Assembly (NCBI RefSeq): GCF_030028105.1 | Contig: NC_092390.1 | Coordinates: 56,588,777-56,652,776 of the forward strand | Length of the DNA stretch: 64,000 nucleotides | Direction of reading: 5' to 3' | Source of the DNA: Mobula birostris | Lineage: Eukaryota | Part shown: piece by piece, positions 8,156 through 62,400 of the stretch | Numbering within the stretch: the first letter of the stretch is position 1 | How the letters are laid out: each line of letters starts with the position of its first letter | Made by a program: the position numbers and the translations under genes | Notes under the pieces: model-generated | Told to the model about the DNA's origin: nothing | Databases searched by the model: none | Seen by the model: only the letters and a program-made list of their open reading frames with translations

Positions 8156-8904
8156 CTTCAGCTGCCTAGGTCATAATTTTTAGGATTCTCTTCATATCTT
8201 TTGTGAACTTCAGTTCTGAATGCTATTTGCTTACTTTTATTGTTTGCACGATTTTTCTTTTTTCTCTGCACATTGGGCTCTATTTGGTTTCTTTGTTTTG
8301 TGGCTGTCTGTAGGAAGACAAGTCTCAAGGTTGTATAAAGTATACATACTTTGATAATAAATGTACTTTGAAGTTTGATATCTTTATCTCTCTATTCACC
8401 TTGCATCCTTTAATTTGCACCTTAAAACCTACCTCTCTGACCTGGCTTTTGTACCATGTAAAATGTTGCTTGTTAAAGATGCTGTAAATGCTGTTGAATT
8501 ATGATACAACTATTGAAAACACCAACATCTCTTCATTCAGCTATGAACTTCATTGTCTCACATTAATCTTTCTTCCAGTTCTTCTCTTCCTTGTATACTA
8601 GATATTCATTGTTGCTAATTGCCTGAACCACAGCGGATTCACATTCTCAAATTTCACTGGGTAAAGATGTTTCTTTTCAATTGGATACATTAGTGATTAG
8701 ATGTTATGACTCTAGTATTGGTGCTTTAAAAAGAAAACCTGAAAATCTGGTTTAATTTGAACTTCTAAATTATACTTGAATTTCCTGTATTTCATTCCTA
8801 TCAGAAAATAGTTGCTTCATATATAATTTTGTCAAATTCCTCCACCTTGTGAAGCTCTTCAAAAAAATTAATGTCTTTACCTGCAGAAGATATCAACACA
8901 ACTA

Positions 8905-9270
8905 AAAGTCTAGAGCACTACAGCACAGGAACAGGCACTTTGGCTCATTTAGTCCATGCTGAGCTATTCTGCCAGGTCCTATCAACCAGCAGTGGGACCA
9001 TAACCCTCCGTACCCCTCCCATCCATGTACGTATCCAAACTTCTCTTAAATGTTACAATTGAACCTGCATCCACCATTTCTGCTGGCAGTCTATTTCACA
9101 CCCACACCACACCCCCTGAGTGAAGAAGTTCCCCCCAGGTTCCCTTAAATATTTCACCTTTCACCCTTAAACTATAACCTCTCATTCTAGTCTCACCCAC
9201 ACTCAATGGAAAAGGCCTGCTTGCATTTACCCTATCTATACCCCTCATAATTTTGTATACCTCTATCAAA
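8905..9270 (-). mobile_element. CR1 LINE 3' fragment (similar fragments at about 10945-11150, 13640-14420, 42965-43165, 44730-45090, 47290-47850)
   Basis: Translates LIEVYKIMRGIDRV...TRxRGYSLRVKG, matching the C-terminus of the CR1 ORF at 16781-18103. Confidence 0.8.
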
Positions 9271-9514
9271 TTTATATTGATTATAAATATTTGATATGAT
9301 AGCACAACACTTTACAGTACAAGGGAACCAAGTTCAACTTTCGCCACTGTCTGTAAAGTTTTCTATGTTCTCCTCGTGACTATTTGGGATTACACCGGGT
9401 GCTCCAGTTCCCTCCCACAGTCCAAAGGCCTGATTAATTGATCATTGTAAATTAAATCATTGTAACCACTTGTAGTAACCTGTAAGAGGAATGTAACCTG
9501 TAAGAAGGGTGTAT

Positions 9515-9699
9515 GGGGTGTGAGGGAGGGGTAGCACCTCTGGTGGGGGAACATGTCGCGTCCTTTTCAGGGCAGTTTGTCCACCTTTGGTCCCCACCTG
9601 GCACTCAGCTCTCACCTGTGGCTCCCGGTAGCTGTTTGCACGTGACAGCAGCCATACCCCGGGCAACGGCTTCGACAAGCCGGCTAAACCAGGTGAGGG
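9515..9699 (+). ncRNA. HDV-like self-cleaving ribozyme candidate
   Basis: P1 9515-9521/9654-9660; P2 9609-9618/9690-9699; P3 GGC/GCC; L3 starts TCC; P1.1 CC/GG; P4 CGGCTT/AAGCCG; J4/2 GCTAA with putative catalytic C9684. Confidence 0.7.
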
Positions 9700-10065
9700 T
9701 AGCCGATGGGTCTCAAGCTCTTGGTGAGATAGGGAGTTGTCTATCCCAGCATGTGAAGACAGACTCCAGCGGATCGAGCAGATGAGACCAATGGAAGGTC
9801 CAACGGTCAAGAAGGCGGTCTCTGCAAGCGTTGTGGAACATGTAGAGCAGGACAAGACACAGAAGACATCCTGGTCATCCACTGCGCCTACTCCCATCTC
9901 CAGCGTCTCGACTCTGTCTTGCCACGGGAGCCAGATGGGAATTGGGAAGAGAGAGTGAGGCTGACGCTGAGCAACCCTCCCTCTCCTAAATCCAAATCAC
10001 GCGCTAGTCTCGACACCATCAATAATGGTGTCAAGGTCCTCATCGACATCGACCATGGACGAACA
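9515..10065 (+). mobile_element. About 550-bp GC-rich non-coding retroelement beginning with an HDV-like ribozyme
   Basis: Sharp GC-rich block in AT-rich DNA, no credible ORF, 5' end folds as HDV-like. Confidence 0.6.
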
Positions 10066-10562
10066 TAAATGTAGATATAGATAACACTGAGACCACAGAA
10101 ATCTTTTCGCGTTTCATGAACAAATCTGGAGATTTCCCATGTATTATAAAAACATCAAAAAAGGTCTGGCAAGACTATCTTTCTGTTTTCCCTTGATCTC
10201 CTTTCTCTTCAACTTTAAATTCCTTGAATTAACATCTGAAGTTCAATTGTGTTCTACTATCTTCAATGGCTCATTTGCTGTTTACCTCTTCCACTCTCAA
10301 GCTACACAGGCTGATGTATCAGTGCGTGACAGAACTTGTTCTGAACACACCAGATTCCTAACTTACTAACTTCAAACTGCTCATGTACAAAGTAAAACAA
10401 ACTCATCCCATTCTCAGTTATTAAGGATTGCGTAATTCAATGTAGATTGCGTAAAACTCTCAGAAAACTCAGGTAGCTTCACTCGCAATGTCTATGCTGA
10501 ACATAAACTCAATGCCTTCGGCCTACACACTATCCATATCCACTTATTTAATGCATATTCAT

Positions 10563-10930
10563 TCCTTCGTTATGTGCTGTGTTGAATGACATTGACATAG
10601 GCTATTATGATCTTTCCATAACCATGATTGTTCCTGGCAAATTTTTCTCCAGAAGTGCTTTGCATTGCCTTCTTCTGGGCAGTGTCTATACCCTTCAGAG
10701 ATTGTCTGGCTGGTGCCAGTGGTCACATAACCAGGACTTGAGATGTGCATCAATTGCCCGCAGGACCATACACCACCTGCTCCCATGGCTTCGCGCGGGA
10801 CGTGGGTAGGAGTTGGGGAGGCGGGGGCTAAGCAGGTGCTACACCTTGTCCAAGAGTGACCTGCAGGCTAGTGGAGGGAAGGAGTGCCTTTCACCTCCTT
10901 TGATAGTTGTATCTCCACTCCGCCACCCAG
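10563..10930 (-). mobile_element. About 380-bp SINE-like family with RTE-type 3' part, copy 1 of 5
   Basis: Aligns with 12287-12677, 22278-22660, 34170-34511 and 59045-59416; TSD about AATGCATATTCAT. Confidence 0.8.
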
Positions 10931-11152
10931 AATATATATTCATGTGCCTATATAAAAGTCCCTTAAATCTTACTATCTTATCTCCTTCCACTTCTATGCC
11001 TGGCAGTTCGTTCCTAGTACTACTACTCTCTGTGTAAAAAACTTGACTAGTACATCTCCTTAAGATTATCTCCCTCTTTCCTTAAATGCCTGTTCTCTAG
11101 TATTTGATATTCCGATCCTGGGAAAAAGATTCTGACTGACTACTTTATCTAT

Positions 11153-16643: not shown

Positions 16644-18252
16644 TTGATATTAAGGGAGAGGAGATGTTGAAGTTGTTAAAATAAATTAGGACAGATAAGT
16701 CCCTGGGGCCTGACGGAATATTCCCCAGGCTGCTCCACGAGGCGAGAGAAGAGATTGCTGAGCCTCTGGCTAGGATCTTTATGTCCTCGTTGTCCACGGG
16801 AATGGTACCGGAGGATTGGAGGGAGGCGAATGTTGTTCCCTTGTTCAAAAAAGGTAGTAGAGATAGTCCGGGTAATTATAGACCAGTGAGCCTTACGTCT
16901 GTGGTGGGAAAGCTGTTGGAAAAGATTCTTAGAGATAGGATCTATAGGCATTTAGAGAATCATGGTCTGATCAGGGACAGTCAGCATGGCTTTGTGAAGG
17001 GCAGATCATGTCTAACAAGCCTGATAGAGTTCTTTGAGGAGGTGACCAGGCATATAGATGAGGGTAGTGCAGTGGATGTGATCTATATGGATTTTAGTAA
17101 GGCATTTGACAAGGTTCCACACGGTAGGCTTATTCAGAAAGTTAGAAGGCATGGGATCCAGGGAAGTTTGGCCAGGTGGATTCAGAATTGGCTTGCCTGC
17201 AGAAGGCAGAGGGTGGTGGTGGAGGGAGTACATTTGGATTGGAGGGTTTTGACTAGTGGTGTCCCACAAGGATCTGTTCTGGGACCTCTACTTTTCGTGA
17301 TTTTTATTAACGACCTGGATGCGGGGGTAGAAGGATGGGTTTGCAAGTTTGCAGACAACACAAAGGTTGCTGGTGTTGTAGATAGTGTAGAGGATTGTCA
17401 AAGATTGCAGAGAGACATTGATAGGATGCAGAAGTGGGCTGAGAAGTGGCAGATGGAGTTCAACCCAGAGAAGTGTGAGGTGGTACACTTTGGAAGGACA
17501 AACTCCAAGGCAAAGTACAAAGTAAATGGCAGGATACTTGGTAATGTGGAGGAGCAGAGGGATCTCGGGGTACATGTCCACAGATCCCTGAAAGTTGCCT
17601 CACAGGTGGATAGGGTAGTTAAGAAAGCTTATGGGGTGTTATCTTTCATAAGTCGATGGATAGAGTTTAAGAGTTGTGATGTAATGATGCAGCTCTATAA
17701 AACTCTGGTTAGGCCACACTTGGAGTACTGTGTCCAATTCTGGTCACCTCACTATAGGAAGGATGTGGAAGCATTGGAAAGGGTACAGAGGAGATTTTCC
17801 AGGATGTTGCCTGGTTTAGAAAGTATGCATTATGATCAGAGATTAAGGGAGCTAGGGATTTACTCTTTGGAGAGGAGGAGGATGAGAGGAGACATGATAG
17901 AGGTGTACAAGATAATAAGAGGAATAGATAGAACGGATAGCCAGTGCCTCTTCCCCAGGGCACCACTGCTCAATACAAGAGGACATGGCTTTAAGGTAGG
18001 GGGTGGGAAGTTCAAGGGGGATATTAGAGGAAGGTTTTTTACTCAGAGAGTGGTTGGTGCGTGGATGCACTGCCTGAGTCAGTGGTGGAGGCAGATACAC
18101 TAGTGAAGTTTAAGAGACTACTAGACAGGTATATGGAGGAATTTAAGGTGGGGGCTTATATGGGAGGCAGGGTTTGAGGGTCGGCACAACATTGTGGGCC
18201 GAAGGGCCTGTACTGTGCTGTACTATTCTATGTTCTATGTTCTATGTTCTAT
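16644..18252 (+). mobile_element. Young 5'-truncated CR1 LINE (reverse transcriptase), inserted into a Rex/Babar fragment
   Basis: 440-aa ORF 16781-18103 with NYRPVSLTS, QHGF, DFSKAFD, GVPQGSVLGP and FADN (FADD mutated); (TTCTATG)n tail. Confidence 0.95.
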
Positions 18253-19618: not shown

Positions 19619-22277
19619 TAATGTATCAAGCTCTACCACTGCCCTTGGCAGGGTTTTCCATGCACCCTCCACTCTCTGTGTAAAGAACTTATCTCTGACA
19701 TCCCCTCTATGCTCAAAACAGCTTAAAATCATGCCCCTTGTCTTAGCCATTTCTGCCTTGGGAAAATGTCTCTGGCTATGCATTTGATCTGCACCTCTTA
19801 TTGTCTTGGCACCTCTAGCAAGCCACCTCTCATCCTCCTTCGCTCCTGAGGTAAAAGCCTTAGTGACCGGCCGATGTGCATGTGGGACGAGTCAGGGTAT
19901 GATCAGGGAATATAGGCAGTTCCACCACAGTCTGAGTGTTGTGGTGATAAATGACCCTACACCATCATTGATCATGTAAAGAGTGAGGAGTTGAAGGGCA
20001 AAACAGGATTTAGCCATGGTGCACTCATTCTGTTTGCTGTAGTTACCCACTTTTATTGACAGATCACACTGCAGTCAGAACTAAGAAAGCAAACTGTCCT
20101 CCTCCCTGGATCCATTCAGGAAGATTAGAAGACATACTAGGTCTTGCCTAATTCAGGCAGGAGAACATGACTACATCAGAGATCAGCACTTCTGTTAACA
20201 TTGTGACAAGGTTGTGAAATTGCCCCAAATTTCAGCCCCAGTGTATTACATGCATCATGTACTGGCAACTCTTCATTGTATTCTTCTTCTGAAATTCTGA
20301 TCTGCTGAAGCCAAAAGCTATGAATTAGTTACTCATGTATTTAAAAAGCTTAAGCATGCAGGAAGATAAACTTGTTTGAAAGGAAATGATTTCTGTCTTT
20401 TTTTTTTTCAGTTTCCACATCTCTTGAAACGAATACATCAATGACAAAACCAACCTTTATTGGAAAGTTGATGGGCCACATTCTTGAACTGCAGCCACCA
20501 TTTCTCAGAAGGTTCTGCATGCTCCTGGGTGGGGAGCTTCAGGATTTAGATCTATGAAGGAATTATGATATATATTTCCAGTGAGGATGGTGTGACTTGG
20601 AAGAATTTCTGCAGATGGCGGTGTTCTAACAACAGTAAAACAGCACACAAGGAACTTTCTAATTAAAAGATATAAGGCATCATCAACATTTCTTAAAAAT
20701 TGGGAAGTACTTGAAACTTTGAGGTTACAAATGATCTTTGCTTCATGCAGTATAAAGAACTGAAGTCATTTCAAATTTTTGACAGAATTTTGACCATGTC
20801 CAAGAGGAAGAGATTATGTTGTCATTCTCCCCAATGAGCTAAAATAATTATATTTATTTATTTACTGATACAGCAGGGAATATGTCCTTCCAGCCATTCC
20901 AACTCAGCAACCCCACATCCCCAATTAATCCTTATCTAACTACAGAACAATTTACAATGACCACCCGACACATCTTTGGGCTGTGTGATGAAATTGGAGC
21001 ACTCGGGGAAAACCTACACATTCCATGTGGAAGACGTACAGAGATCCCTTACAGAAAGGCACCCATGTGGATAGAACAAGTTAATACTGTGGCGTCCATG
21101 TGGATAAAACAAGTTAATGCAAGAATGAACTACTAATAAGCCATTGAAGAAGGCTTAAAGATAAATGATATTATCAACCACAATCACAATCACAATGGAT
21201 AACGCTGCAAATTTTTGTTTTGGAACTCCACTCTCCATGTTCTTTTACTTGATGACGATATTAATTATTCCCTACAGCATAGAATACTTGAGATCCAAAT
21301 TTATTATTTTTAACAAGGTCTGGGCTTTCTTAATCAGAAAGTTGAGTTCCAAGGCAGCCCAAACTAGAAAGATGAAATAGCATACTGTTTCATCCTTGCA
21401 TGGTGACAAAACGTTTGTAAGGAAATTGCCAAGATTGGAGAAAAGCTCAATCCAACCCAATGCAACTTTACTTGATGGAATGGCTCTAAATGCAAGTGGT
21501 TGGAAAAGTTTCAAATCGGGATTTAGCAAATTATATAATTCTATGTTGATTGTCACTTGAACATTGATGTGGGAAAGAGAGAAAATAAATATACTTATTT
21601 GCTTAGGAAACAGTCTCTTCTGAAACTGGGACTGAGGTTTCATTTTAGCCCATATTAGAGGACCTTTGCTTCATTAGTTTGGTAGAGGATGCTTGAACTG
21701 ACACACGCTATTGTAGCAGTTAGCACAATGCTTTACAGTACAGGCCACCCACGTTCCCGCTGTTGCCTGCAAGGAGTTTATACATTCTCCCCATGACCAC
21801 GTGGGTTTCTTCCGGGTGCTCCGGTTTCCTCCCACAGTCCAAAGACCTATACCACTTAGTAGGTTAATTGGTGATTGAAAATTGTCCCAAGATTAGACTA
21901 GGATTCAGTTGGGAGATTGCAGGGTAGTGCGGCTTGATAGCCCAGAAGGGACAATTCCGTGGTGTATGTCAATAAATAAATAAATAGCCAATGAAAATGC
22001 CTTAGTTCTTAGCATTTAAATCCCTCAGTATAATACGTTTGAGCCTTCCTGGGTTCAAGTGTCATCATGTTTTCTCATAAGCAATCTGCTCATCTTTTAG
22101 GAGGGCTGAGTCACACTGCCCTACATCTTACATGATAGTGTGCGCAGCTGCATATCAATATGACCTGCACTCGCACTGTGTATATCAAACGTGTGCTTCT
22201 TTCATCCTTCCTTAGGCAATATTTGAGGATGGCCATTAAAAAATTTCCAGGATTTATTACTGAATAAACGGGATAGT

Positions 22278-37803: not shown

Positions 37804-40800
37804 TAAACACCAAGGAGGCCAGTGCTAGACTGATTTTTGGGTTGAGGACATGTACATTTAGCAATATAATGCTCAATTATAAATTGCACATTGCACATTT
37901 AGATGGAGATGTAATGTGAAGATTTTTACTCGTGCATATGAAGCATGCAAGTAATACAGTCAATTCAATTGATTGCGGCTACCATTCTTCACATCTGAAA
38001 ATATATTGTGCAGCGTTGGACAATGGGTTCCTAAAAGCTGTGAATCCCAGACCAAGCAATGGTGATTAAAATTCATTTGGATGTCTGTGGTGTGGATGCG
38101 AATCAGGAAGTGTGAACGTTGTATATGGTTTCAAAAAAAGCATTATCCATACACTGTAAATATGGAGTTGTCCTTTGATGTTTGGCACATAAAATATCCA
38201 ACCCCATGTTGGGCCAGAAACAGCTTTCGACTGAAAGCGTCTCCATAAGATGCCTGCTGTACCTTGTTTTGTCATATAAAGAAGCTGCTTTGTATCTACC
38301 AATAATTTTCTCCAGTGACTTCATTCATGCAACAAAAGCCAGGACAGATTTCTACCCAGACCTTGAGAAACTTCAGCCCACGATCCTCCTGGACAATTCA
38401 ATGTTAAAATAGCAAAAGACCAAATCCTCTGAAAAATCCTGAAAGGCAAGGATGGAGTATGGAAAGTTAGGGCAGCATGGTAATCGCTTTACAGGGCCAG
38501 TGATCACCAACTGGAGTTCAATTCTCTCCATTGTCTGTAAGGAGATTGTATGTTCTCTCTGTGACTGTGTGGGATTCCTCTGGGTGTTCTGGTTTATTCC
38601 ACTTTCCAAAGACATATGGTTAGGGCTAGTGAGTTGTGAGTGATGCTGTGTTGGCACCAGAAGCATGGTGATACTTGCGGGCAGCCCCCAGCATAACCCT
38701 TACAGATTTGATTTGATACAGCACAGCACATTTTACTGTATGTTTCAATGTACATACATGTGATAAGTAAAGCTAATCTTTAATCTTTTCAGTGAGTCCT
38801 CCATCTGAGTAAGGATTTGTGATAACCAGTACACTGCTTCATTAGAGGGTCAAGCACAGGACTTCTTGGTAATTTCTCCCAATCTAGGCAATGGTACCTG
38901 TCAAATTATCTCTTCATCTGAGCAAGAGATTATAGGAGAGTCTGCTATATCCATACCATAATGGCTACTGATGACCGTGGGTCTGATCCATTCTGTTATC
39001 TCCATCAGTCTGGCTCCAAAGCAAAAAATGGCAACAGAAACAGTGATGCACGTTTCAGACAACCTGAGGACTCTTAACCAACAGGAGGAATAGAGTATCC
39101 ACAGCTTCTAGCCTCCTTTGAGGATCACCATAATTAGCACCTGTGAAGATACTCTTCATATAACTGCTAGCAAAAACCAGAACTTGATTGATGAGGGCGT
39201 ACGGGAGATCCAGGAATTAATTGAAAGCATATGTTTAGTTCCTTTGTAACATAATTCCACCACACCTCAAGGAAAATGAAACAGCTCAGCCTTAACAGAA
39301 AACTACAGTCTATAGAGCAGATGGTTGGTGGAAGGAGAACAGCAAGTCCAGTAACTCACCAATAATCATGACATATGGATTCATAAGCACCGTCAAGACT
39401 ACTTTAGGCCAGACATCCAAGAGTCCACCCTGCTATGAGCCAAGAAGACAGTATTTTTGCTAAAGTTTTAAAAAAATTAACCCTTAAAGGAGACAGCATT
39501 CTTGTCTAAAACACAGCAGAGTAATTCACAAACTCATTTCCCACATTAGGGGAACTCAGAAACACCATAATTATTATTTCTTTCAAGAACAGAAACAAAT
39601 CAATTGCATTAACCGCAGAGGATCAATGTCTCTGCCAGCATTCACCTCAGCCAACTCCTGCCAATGATCAAGAGCTGTTCCCTGAATCACAGTGTGACTT
39701 AACTGTCTCAAATCAAAATGGATAAGACTTAATGGCATATCAACCCTATTCAGTGGATTCATGACCTTTAACAGTTTTTGCAAATTTCATCCTTCAATTG
39801 ACATCATATATCCGAAGCAGATTTGGAAAAATTACAGTCTATGCTTTCAAGAACCAATTCTGAAATAAAACCAGGAAAGGTCGGTGGGGGTGCATGTGTG
39901 CATTCACATCAATGACCTTTCATTGCTGTCAATGATCTGAAATATTAACATTATTTCTGACTCCAGTAATGCTGTTCCATGCATTTAGTTCAGTATTTCC
40001 TGTTTTAATGTTTAAATTAACACTTCAGGTCAATGTTCTAATAAAAAGTTACTGACCTGAAATAATAGCCGTTATTTCCCCCTACATCAAAATCACCTCA
40101 ACTGCTGAGCACTTTGTGTGTCGTTTTCCCCAAAATTTCAGATTTCTAGCATCTTTAGCACTTTACATTTGCAGAAGAAATTCTGATCAGATTTTTAATT
40201 ATGTAGGGAAATTATCGTCAATTAAAATTAATAGCGAAGGAGGTTGCAATTTTTCTCTTGCCTGATCACCAGAACTGATCAAGTTTCTAACACAAGACAC
40301 CCAGTGGACTTTGCCTGTGATCAGTATCTGATGCAGAGAACAAAATGGAGAAATGATTTAAGAATATTCTCAAGCTTCCTTCAATAAAAAAAATGCAACA
40401 TCAGCAGAGACCGAGATCCCCTGAACCACCACAATTTGGATACGGAGCTGTCTGAATGGCATTGAGAACCTCAGTGGGACAGGACCGTAGAGGAGGCCAG
40501 CAGGAATGGCAGGACTGCACCCTAAACAAGCTGGGATCTGCCAATGAAGCATTTACCCTGCTTCCCTTTCCACAATTCTAACTTAGTCAGCTGCGTCATG
40601 GGCACTGGCCTCTGTAGTATCCAGGACACCCGCAAGCAGTGACGCCTCAAGAAGGCGGCATTCATCCCCTATCGCCCAGGTTATGCCTTGTTCTCATTGC
40701 TACCATTACGAAGGCGCTACAGGAGCCTGAAGGCACATATTCAAAAGATTCAGGAACAGTTATTCCCCCCTGCCATGCATTTTCTGAATGGACATTGAAC

Positions 40801-59416: not shown

Positions 59417-62400
59417 AAGCACAGTATTGGATGTAAATGTATTGGAAACAGTTTACAGGGATTTACTTGACTAATAGCTGAAATGGTCAGTTGTCCTTTA
59501 AGAAGAGGTTCAATGGGCTTTTATCGCCAACAACTTGAGGAATGAGAAGTGACTTAATTAAAGCAGAAGGTTCTGAAGTCTTGATGCAGAGACAAGTTTC
59601 TTCTAGGAGAATCGAGAGTTAAAGGTCACTTGTTTAAATATACAGGATTTAAGAAGATATGGCAAAATATTTTCTTAAAGGGAGTTGTTGGTCCTTGGAC
59701 CTCCCTTTCTTAAAGGCTGTTGGACTTGGAGTATTTCACTGTTTTAAAGGCTGAGTTGATAAAATTTTGATAGGTAAGAATGTGAAAGGTTACTGGGATT
59801 AAGTGAGAATATGGAATTGAGTTTGCATTCAGATCAGCCATGATTTGACTGAGTGGCCTTCCTTTTTCTGTCTTTCCCCAGCCTTTTCTCAGAATCAGAA
59901 TCAAGTTTATTGTCACTGACATACACTCTATTAATATTAAGTACACCTGTACATGTGCTCATTAACATAAATAGATAATCAGCTAATCATGTGGCAGCAA
60001 CTCAGTACAATAAAAGCATGCAGACATGGCCAAGAGGTTCAGTTGTTCAGACTAAACATCAGAATGGGGGAAGAATTATAAGTGACTTTGACCGTGTAAT
60101 TATTGCTAGTGCCAGGCAGGGTGGTTTGAGTATCTCAGAAACTGCTGATACCTTGGGATTTTCACACACCACAATCTCTTAAGAGTTTACTGAGAATGGT
60201 GTGAAAAACAAGAAAATGTCCAGTGAGTGGCAGTACTGAGGGTGCAAATGCCTTGTTGATGAGAGAGGTCAGAGGAGAATGGCCAGACTGCTTCAAGCTG
60301 ACAGTAACACAAATAGACACACGTTACAACAGTGGTGTGCAAAGACCATCTCTAAGCGGCCAACACATCAAACCTTAAAGTGGATGTGTTACAGCAGCAG
60401 AAGACCACGAACATACAGTCAGTGGCCACCTAAATTGGGAACACGGAGTGTATATCATGAAATGCAATGTTTTGTGGCAGCAGTACAGTGCAATACATAT
60501 ACAATTACTATAAGTTACAAAAAATATATAAAATATAAATGAACAGTGCAAAAAGAGAGCAAAATTGTGAGATAGTGTCCATGATTCATGGGCCATTGAG
60601 AAATCTGCTGGTGGAGGGGAAGAAGCTGTTCCTAAAATTTTGAGTGTGCATCCTTAGGCTCCTGTACCTCCTCCCTGATGCTAGTGAGAAGTTAGCATGT
60701 CATGGATGATGACAGTCCTTAATGATGGATGCTGTATTTTGAAGATATCCTTGATGTTGGGGAGGCTAGTGCCCATGATGGAGCTGGGTGAGTACACAAC
60801 CCTCTGCAGCTTTTCTTGAGAATTCCATAATGGACAGTGATGCAACCAGTGAGAGTGCTCTCAACAATATATCTGTTGAAATGTGTTGGAGTCTTTAGTG
60901 ATATACTAAGTCCCCTCAAACTTCAAAGTTCATAATATGTCACCATCAATAACCATGAAATTTATTTTCTTGTGGGTGTACTCAACAAATCCTATTGAAA
61001 TATTGCTGCTGGCGTGTATTTTTCTTGATTGCCTCAATATGTTGGGCCCAGGAAAAGATCATCTGAGGTACTGACGTCCAGGAACTTGAAGCTGCTCACT
61101 CTTTCCACTGCTGAGGCCTCCATGAGGATGGGTGTGTGTTCTCCTGATATCCCCTTCCTGGCATTGAGAACAAGGTTGTTGTAGGGGCACCACTCAATCA
61201 GCTGATCTACCTCACTCTTGTATGCCTCCTCATCTCCATATACAGTTCTACCAAAAACAGATCTGTCATTGGTGAATTTATAGTTTGCATTTGAACTGTG
61301 TCTGGGCACACAGTCATGGGTGTGGAGAGGGTAGAGCAGTGGGCTAACATGTATCCTTGAGGTGCACCTCGGTTGGTTGTCAGTGAAGAGGAGATGTAAT
61401 TTCTAATCTGCACTGATTGCAACGCCGACTGCAATTTGCAATCTATTGATTTTTTTTCTTGATCTGATGAAAGGACGTTGTCCTGAAATGGTTAGCTATG
61501 ATTTTCCACAAATGCTTCCCAACTTTCTGAGTATTTCCAGTGTTTTGTTTACATACTTAAAAAAATTTCTTAAGTACCTCATGTCGATCAGTATCTCACA
61601 CAACAATCTTTGATATTGCCTTTAAAGTAACTTCGCATGTGGCCTGCAGATGGAAGGATGATGGAATGGTGGAGCAGGTTCAATAGGCTGACTAGCCTGA
61701 TTCTGCTCATACCATTAGATCTTATAATGGTCCAATTAAGTTGCCCGGTTGTAGCCAAATTATGATCATCGGCTCTGATTAAAATTCTGGGTAAAAACTT
61801 CCAGAGGTAGTTTTCTTAGTTTTTTTTTAATATATTCTCTATATTACCAGCGACCTGGGCTCAATTCCTGCCGCTACCTGTAAGAACTTTGTAGGTTCTG
61901 ACCATGACTGCGTGGGTTCCTCTGGGCGCTCCAGTTTCCTCCCACAGTCTACAGGCATTCCGATTGGTAGGTTAATTGTTCATTGTAAATTGTCCCATCA
62001 TTAGGCTAGGGTTAAATAGGGAGTTGCTAGGTGGCACAGCCTGAAGGGCCGGAAGGTCCTACTCCACACTCAATACATAAATAAATAAAAATAGAATTAC
62101 TGAATCTAAGCCTGTCATGATGCTTGACATTCATCCTAATTCGAGTTTAGTTTGTAAAATAGCAATTAAACAATTAAATACACCCTCTTCTAATGTTATG
62201 CTGTGGCTCAATTTGTGTTTGCAGTGTATTTGAAAGTGAACTTGTTTTTGATTCATAACATATTATGACATTGACGATGCCCATATGCCCCTTGTCCTTG
62301 TGTAGACTCTGCAGGAGCTGTCTGTGTGCTCTTTCCCCTCCACTTGTATCTGTAATCCTAGACGGTTGCTATGTACCCTTCCTTTCACTATTTTGCACAT

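Follow-up and report, generated by a model that had tools for sequence, protein, structure and literature searches.

The 64,000-nt stretch of DNA analyzed here (the window) carries, on its forward strand at positions 9506..10065, a short non-autonomous RTE-type retroelement of about 560 nt, supported by genome matches and core counts, which belongs to a family that we denote family A. The first 194 nt of the element, from 9506, make up a predicted ribozyme with an HDV-like double pseudoknot. Downstream, on the same strand, lie a block homologous to the internal 5' UTR of RTE LINEs (9730..10015) and an RTE-type 3' tail (10025..10065). No second copy of the element was found within the 64-kb window.

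Two further features of the window were noted. Directly before the element there is an older dispersed repeat (9330-9500), seen again at 716-823, 21722-21884, 38515-38611 and 61870-61991, which resembles a SINE of the tRNA/CORE type. Farther downstream, a 472 amino acid open frame on the forward strand (16685-18103) contains an RVT_1 domain (E 3e-36) and resembles a CR1/L2-type LINE; no link between this frame and the element was found.

A large family of short elements starting at position 9506

A search of the 4.0-Gb genome assembly with positions 9505-10085 yielded 5,554 candidates. One of the best 40 is the window copy, the rest are 92-94% identical, and nearly all of these 40 cover the query from positions 1-5 to about 561. 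Exact matches to a 38-nt core number 673 in the genome, and a relaxed pattern of this core gave 1,959 genome matches against 0 in the control, with 100/100 of the relaxed-core matches listed being family A copies with a long L3 loop; the size of the family is put at no fewer than (at least) 1,959 cores in the 4.0-Gb genome.

The ends of the copies were mapped in two samples of 30 loci each that have some loci in common. Among the loci anchored at the core, which were chosen by exact core match, the 5' start falls at 9505-9508 in 27 and at 9512-13 in 2, and 1 is rearranged; among those anchored at the tail, 20 are full length, 10 are 5'-truncated, and 0 start at the inner copy of a repeated 7-mer described below. 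The original prediction had assigned P1 to this inner copy (9515-21), with cleavage at G9515 and copy 5' ends expected at or just before that nucleotide, which is 9 nt off, given that copy ends and target-site duplication (TSD) ends map to 9506. TSDs were detected in 18 of 28 analyzable family A loci (3 of 31 loci, without head or tail, were left out); with one mismatch allowed, they are 11-14 bp long in 15 of the 18, and in 13 of these 18 TSD-bearing loci the TSD end lies 0-2 nt from position 9506. Most copies end in (CAA)n, which is short in the window copy, where no TSD was found. These TSDs and (CAA)n ends fit the range of animal RTEs, namely, TSDs of 7-15 bp and (CAA)n tails (PMC6007223).

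Private changes of the window copy relative to family A are located at 9522, 9627, 9641, 9650 and 9655; the majority letter of the family is C at 9522 (29/29 copies) and G at 9506 (23/29), and the window copy differs at both. At the 5' junctions of 4/29 copies (L036, L037, L038 and L059), an extra full or partial terminal 9-nt unit is found upstream, which suggests that integration itself can duplicate the P1 strand. The nucleotide at position -1 (window 9505) is T in 17/29 core-anchored copies and in 19/29 top matches. HDV cleaves fastest when U occupies -1 (PMC1874588), but the T across copies could stem from target preference.

None of the four longest frames of the element has a Pfam match above cut-off, and tblastn detected no match inside the element in the tail-anchored loci. 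No tRNA was found in the element, nor were A or B boxes with simple patterns, nor was a tRNA-, 5S- or 7SL-derived head, Rfam giving no match in positions 8500-11000 (E up to 10). These results argue against a canonical Pol III SINE. The proposal of an ORF-less, multi-copy short element headed by the fold accordingly holds, with 9506-10065 as its extent; the description of the family as SINE-like stands as far as the missing Pol III head is concerned, but it is more precisely that of a bipartite non-autonomous RTE.

Part of the element is present in 24 SRA rows from 13 studies. The four sets examined are contigs, their RNA status mostly guessed; two span the element end to end without flanks (28/30 bins), and the other two cover it partially (22 and 16 of 30 bins). 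These sets are silent on expression or cleavage.

Origin from RTE LINEs and the likely helper

The UTR block (9730..10015) is 72-74% identical over about 280 nt to RTE copies L175, L183 and L185, and the tail (10025..10065) aligns to the tail of an RTE family in the same genome. By eye, the block resembles the UTRs of RTE-1_PSi and RTE-3_AMi, and the tail that of RTE-1_PSi (PMC5786205 supplement). A tail pattern with one degenerate letter gave 537 genome matches against 67 in the control and led to a LINE family, with 28/30 loci carrying a tail homologous to that of the element. This tail-sharing LINE encodes an AP-type endonuclease and a reverse transcriptase (RT), and its 5' UTR has 72-75% identity to window 9737-10009; its layout, together with the UTR and tail resemblance to RTE-1_PSi and RTE-3_AMi, suggests that it is RTE/BovB-like. 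Judged by sequence comparison, family A is a bipartite non-autonomous RTE that consists of an RTE 5' UTR and an RTE tail. Over their last 300 nt, copies of the short element are 93.4% and those of the LINE 95.6% identical pairwise, and such similar ages are compatible with overlapping activity of the two.

A ribozyme at the LINE 5' end is absent in 40/40 5' loci of the tail-sharing LINE. When the genome was searched for a ribozyme-headed autonomous RTE with L247, a metagenomic relative of the element described below, none appeared in the best 40 of 3,381 matches, where only RTE copies aligned from after the ribozyme were seen. Since neither of these samples contained a ribozyme-headed autonomous RTE, parent and helper may be different families, and the direct parent may be extinct or rare in this genome.

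Where a ribozyme would be expected, the tail-sharing LINE has a GC-rich head (L230:1649-2257 on the minus strand, L217-L246, L175:54-611) that encodes about 100 amino acids resembling methylmalonyl-CoA epimerase, with a TIGR03081 match of E 2e-28 that falls below the curated cut-off. This epimerase-like head was observed in 13/40 LINE 5' loci on several contigs, five of these loci being one segmental duplicate set, and its sequence looks like the capture of a 5' piece of a host gene by an active LINE.

Other RTE sequences were encountered in the same genome. Compared with L175 and L186, RTE copies L183 and L185 have a common internal deletion of about 300 nt in the 5' UTR, which starts soon after the stretch homologous to the short element ends. 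The genome also holds several more RTE-like LINE families (L061-L090, detected with PF20049), with tails of the form (GAA)n, (TAAC)n or (GAC)n. The RTE families found via PF20049 were rejected as partners, having other tails and no similarity to the element (0/30 loci).

Relatives in the genome and in metagenomes

A second family in the genome, family B (L187-L216), comprises older short elements that have the ribozyme and the doubled head in common with family A but differ in the 3' half and end in a (CCA)n-like tail. Pairwise identity is about 75% within family B and about 72-75% to family A, and no ORF was found in 30 loci. A scan of metagenomes produced 5 matches, of which 4 are true relatives in three lineages and one (L249) was discarded as a chance match. 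Among the relatives, L248 is a further short element of bipartite build that ends in this tail, and in L247 the same ribozyme is joined to a UTR that is 78% identical over 570 nt to the UTR of the tail-sharing LINE, almost up to the LINE ORF. The contigs of L247 and L250 showed no ORF within their extent. The 53 pattern matches in viral contigs included none with family sequence or, by eye, a convincing HDV layout, and there were 0 pattern matches in prokaryote genomes.

An HDV-like fold at the 5' end

P1, P1.1, P2, P3 and P4 are all pairable as a nested double pseudoknot, and all helices of the original prediction, its P1 included, can form at the positions given there. On the forward strand, the 5' strand of P2 (9609..9618) pairs with 9690-9699, with 95% of cells paired across the alignment described below, and P3 is formed by 9620-22 and 9651-53. 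The segment 9620..9630 comprises the 5' strand of P3 and the first 8 nt of L3, and the segment 9651..9667 the 3' strands of P3 and P1 (the latter at 9654-60), the GG of P1.1 (9661-62) and J1/4; P1.1, paired by hand, joins CC 9624-25 with this GG. The P4 hairpin (9667..9682) shows a G-C/C-G swap at pair 2 and U-A, U-G or C-G at pair 5, and J4/2 with the putative catalytic C9684 is followed by the 3' strand of P2 (9683..9699).

The equivalents of HDV U20, C21/C22:G38/G39, G25, C75 and A77/A78 are present (numbering of PMC1874588). The majority sequences of both families, A and B, carry U9623, C9624, G9628 and C9684; the C9684 equivalent is C in 12/12 aligned sequences and in 27/30 family-B copies, and G9661, a CpG site, is often A in old family-B copies (17/30). 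At the start of L3, the equivalents of HDV U20, C21, C22 and G25 are kept, and positions 23 and 24 vary.

In an alignment of 12 sequences, which represent about five related lineages and include old copies with CpG decay, pairing is seen in 93.4% of cells across 39 pairs, compared with 37-47% when partners are slid. Unprompted, RNAalifold recovered the terminal P1, J1/2, P3, P4 and the hairpin in L3; 13/53 of its pairs show two-sided changes. By helix, two-sided changes occur in P1 (1), P4, the closing pair of the L3 hairpin and J1/2, and none occur in P2, P3 or P1.1 among these roughly five lineages. Some of the pair changes read as compensatory in the alignment. RNAalifold prefers an extended P3 (9618-23 with 9650-55) that, in the predicted structure, would compete with P1 and P2 and occupy U9623.

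The P1 register and the J1/2 domain

The element starts with a doubled 7-mer, 9506..9512 and 9515..9521. J1/2 (9516..9606) is a structured domain, a long hairpin of the P1.2 type with an energy of -29 to -46 kcal/mol and several two-sided changes across lineages; the inner 7-mer is most likely the 5' arm of its base helix, pairing with 9601-9606 in all lineages and, with the family A letters, with 9597-9606. With P1 formed by the terminal 7-mer, the first P1 nucleotide coincides with the element 5' end given by copy ends and TSDs, and the predicted cleavage site is located just 5' of 9506. Position 9506 is G in most copies and A in the window copy, which results in an A.C pair; A1:C37 is the most effective substitute for G1:U37 (PMC1874588).

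Could either 7-mer form P1, so that the RNA would be cut at 9506 or 9515, perhaps through a folding switch? In most lineages, P1' can pair with either 7-mer equally well, and whole-structure pair counts are the same for the two registers (93.4% and 0.144 versus 93.7% and 0.155), each register having one two-sided change. The 2/30 copies that start at 9512-13 and the C-to-G change at 9522 in the window copy, which weakens the base of J1/2, would fit such a two-register ribozyme, and doubled P1 strands with shifting, alternative cleavage sites have been discussed for R2 (PMC3774820). We nevertheless consider dual cleavage unlikely, because 27/30 copies retain the terminal repeat, and a cut at the inner site would eliminate it permanently. 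Furthermore, L247 has U-A in place of G-C as the second P1 pair of the terminal strand, and its inner repeat is a poor partner for P1', so that the terminal strand alone matches. Summed helix energies, computed without pseudoknot penalties, favor the terminal register by 6-11 kcal/mol in 6/7 rows, the seventh row (L037) having been mis-anchored and dropped, and RNAalifold pairs the terminal strand with P1'. The terminal 7-mer is, then, most likely P1.

A hairpin inserted in L3

The original prediction of an L3 of about 28 nt with a hairpin was confirmed: L3 is 28 nt long in the window copy and 26-28 nt in all lineages, the length of the insert varying by 2 nt. The inserted hairpin (9631..9649, forward strand) consists of a 5-bp stem (9631-35/9645-49), a 1-nt bulge, 1-2 bp and a CAYG loop, and follows the eighth L3 nucleotide, that is, the equivalent of HDV position 27. 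HDV can do without its U27, which is looped out. All 12 aligned sequences (12/12) have the outer 4 bp of the hairpin paired, the fifth stem pair, misaligned by MAFFT, having been judged by eye; the sole two-sided change in the outer stem comes from a decayed copy. As for the pair that closes the loop, it is G-C in 6, G-U in 3 and A-U in 2 of the 12 sequences, and is unpaired in 1. As aligned, the HDV core residues and the L3 hairpin are kept in about five lineages, namely, family A, family B and three metagenome lineages.

Families A and B, L250 and L247, the last with a two-sided change, have a self-complementary hexamer as the hairpin loop with its closing pair (9638-9643), and this self-complementarity is absent in L248, L251 and the window copy; the hexamer is either a tetraloop with closing pair or a kissing loop. 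No sister family with a short L3 was seen: the 39 matches to the short-L3 version of the core motif comprise 30 family copies, matched via deletions or a TCC farther on, and 9 sequences that appear to be unrelated.

L3 belongs to the catalytic core (PMC4908430), and the insert of the 28-nt loop of family A is absent from HDV and CPEB3, in which L3 loops are 7-8 nt long (bioRxiv 10.1101/2022.09.22.508989). An HDV-derived fold rendered dead or very slow by the insert might persist as a protective or protein-binding structure, with the element's 5' end set by transcription initiation. The predicted competing P3, the description of the L1Tc 5' end as both promoter and ribozyme, and the use of a ribozyme fold to protect RNA 5' ends in R2 tools (PMC13708176) would all be in line with such a relic. 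It appears improbable to us, given that lineages of about 72-77% identity have unchanged core residues and vary at L3 positions 23-24, in J1/4 and in P4, and that the element end coincides with P1 position 1.

Rfam HDV-type models matched neither the window stretch (8500-11000, E up to 10) nor four relatives (second scan, E up to 5). An HDV descriptor with an L3 of 7-9 nt gave no match on either window strand, and a loose descriptor allowing an L3 of up to 35 nt gave 1 match over the two window strands together (P3 at 9620, C9684), with two possible P1 starts, 9506 and 9515. In 40 dinucleotide-shuffled windows, the loose descriptor gave 5 matches (5/40 windows, mean 0.125), so that pairing by itself is only modestly beyond chance, and the argument rests on position and conservation. 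Despite these shuffled matches, the view that a GC-rich repeat pairs by chance can be dismissed, being contradicted by the exact position of the 5' end, conservation in about five lineages and the compensatory changes. The comparisons across lineages indicate that the HDV-like fold at the head of the element, L3 hairpin included, is real and conserved, with cleavage predicted.

Discussion

We propose, with a probability of roughly 75%, that the ORF-less element combines the 5' end of an RTE-clade LINE with the 3' tail of such a LINE, and that its predicted HDV-like ribozyme with an L3 hairpin likely frees the element RNA from read-through transcripts of the host by cutting just before 9506. 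Release by self-cleavage is the likeliest role of the fold. Under this model, host Pol II would read through a copy, consistent with the lack of detected Pol III boxes. The J1/2 hairpin is predicted, from the copy ends and one compensatory pair, to take up the inner P1-like repeat and to leave the terminal 7-mer free for P1. C9684 would catalyze cleavage, as its homology to HDV suggests, and the L3 hairpin would exit after the equivalent of HDV nucleotide 27 and point away from the active site. An RTE protein would then recognize the common tail and insert the RNA by target-primed reverse transcription, with the tail and the similar age pointing to trans-mobilization; target-site duplications and 5'-truncated copies, the products that such insertion would leave, are seen.

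HDV-like ribozymes are found at the 5' ends of R2, RTE, baggins and L1Tc (Ruminski 2011 as cited in PMC5786205 and PMC6765202). Family A resembles the HDV-like ribozymes of non-LTR elements, such as drz-Agam-2 (PMC4908430), in the nested double pseudoknot, the core residues and a (here predicted) cut at the 5' end, as well as in the large structured J1/2 and the extended P2. A stable J1/2 domain and an extended P2 speed cleavage in drz-Agam-2 (PMC4908430), and both are likewise predicted in the family A element. Unlike these ribozymes, family A has an L3 of 28 nt with an inserted hairpin and a doubled P1 5' strand, the inner copy closing J1/2, is without Rfam match and in most copies has a G1-C pair, not G.U.

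Non-autonomous elements of bipartite build, of the RTE, Ingi, Vingi and R2 types, have been described and linked to 5' ribozymes (PMC5786205), and the ribozyme motifs that were looked for do not occur in the supplement of that paper. Family A is similar to RTESINE1/2, WALLSI3, MAR4_MD and RTE-N2_Lch from the same source in that it combines an RTE 5' UTR with a short RTE tail, has no ORF and no small-RNA head, and shows a (CAA)n end and TSDs of 11-14 bp. Ribozymes in RTE, R2 SIDEs and L1Tc have been reviewed (PMC6765202), and active ribozymes are present in NARTc and SIDER elements (PMC4035085). R2 SIDEs and the trypanosome NARTc and SIDER elements are, like family A, ORF-less, internally deleted LINE derivatives, with the ribozyme release reported there being predicted here; they belong to other LINE clades, and no L3 insert is described in the portions of those sources available. 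Hence, the class of bipartite elements, the mechanism of ribozyme release and short elements headed by ribozymes are already known, and the new part is the L3 hairpin with the doubled P1 strand. The literature searched describes neither an L3 insertion nor a doubled P1 combined with an L3 hairpin, though such a feature may appear in figures or supplementary files of the early surveys of HDV-like ribozymes.

In the available descriptions of natural HDV-like ribozymes, variation is in J1/2 and P4, and L3 is regarded as core. A conserved L3 helix would show that insertions are tolerated at a third place, adjacent to the active site, and would give a handle for ribozyme engineering; it would also imply that surveys relying on descriptors or Rfam overlook entire families of thousands of copies. 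Going further, we tentatively suggest, stopping somewhat short of even odds, that active HDV-like ribozymes with an L3 hairpin and a doubled cleavage-site strand are an undescribed subclass and the ancestral 5' end of a wide RTE lineage. If so, such ribozymes are invisible to short-L3 descriptors and to Rfam, and animal ribozyme counts are underestimated. Within this subclass, the L3 hairpin may be a protein-docking or dimerization module, because its loop is a self-complementary hexamer in several lineages. On this view, the parasites in this genome would have kept the ribozyme, and the likely helper LINE would have swapped it for a captured piece of a host gene. RTE UTRs are already used in gene-insertion tools (PMC13708176). 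Family A makes testable the proposal, put forward in PMC5786205, that 5' ribozymes explain the bipartite, Pol III-less parasites of RTE-type LINEs.
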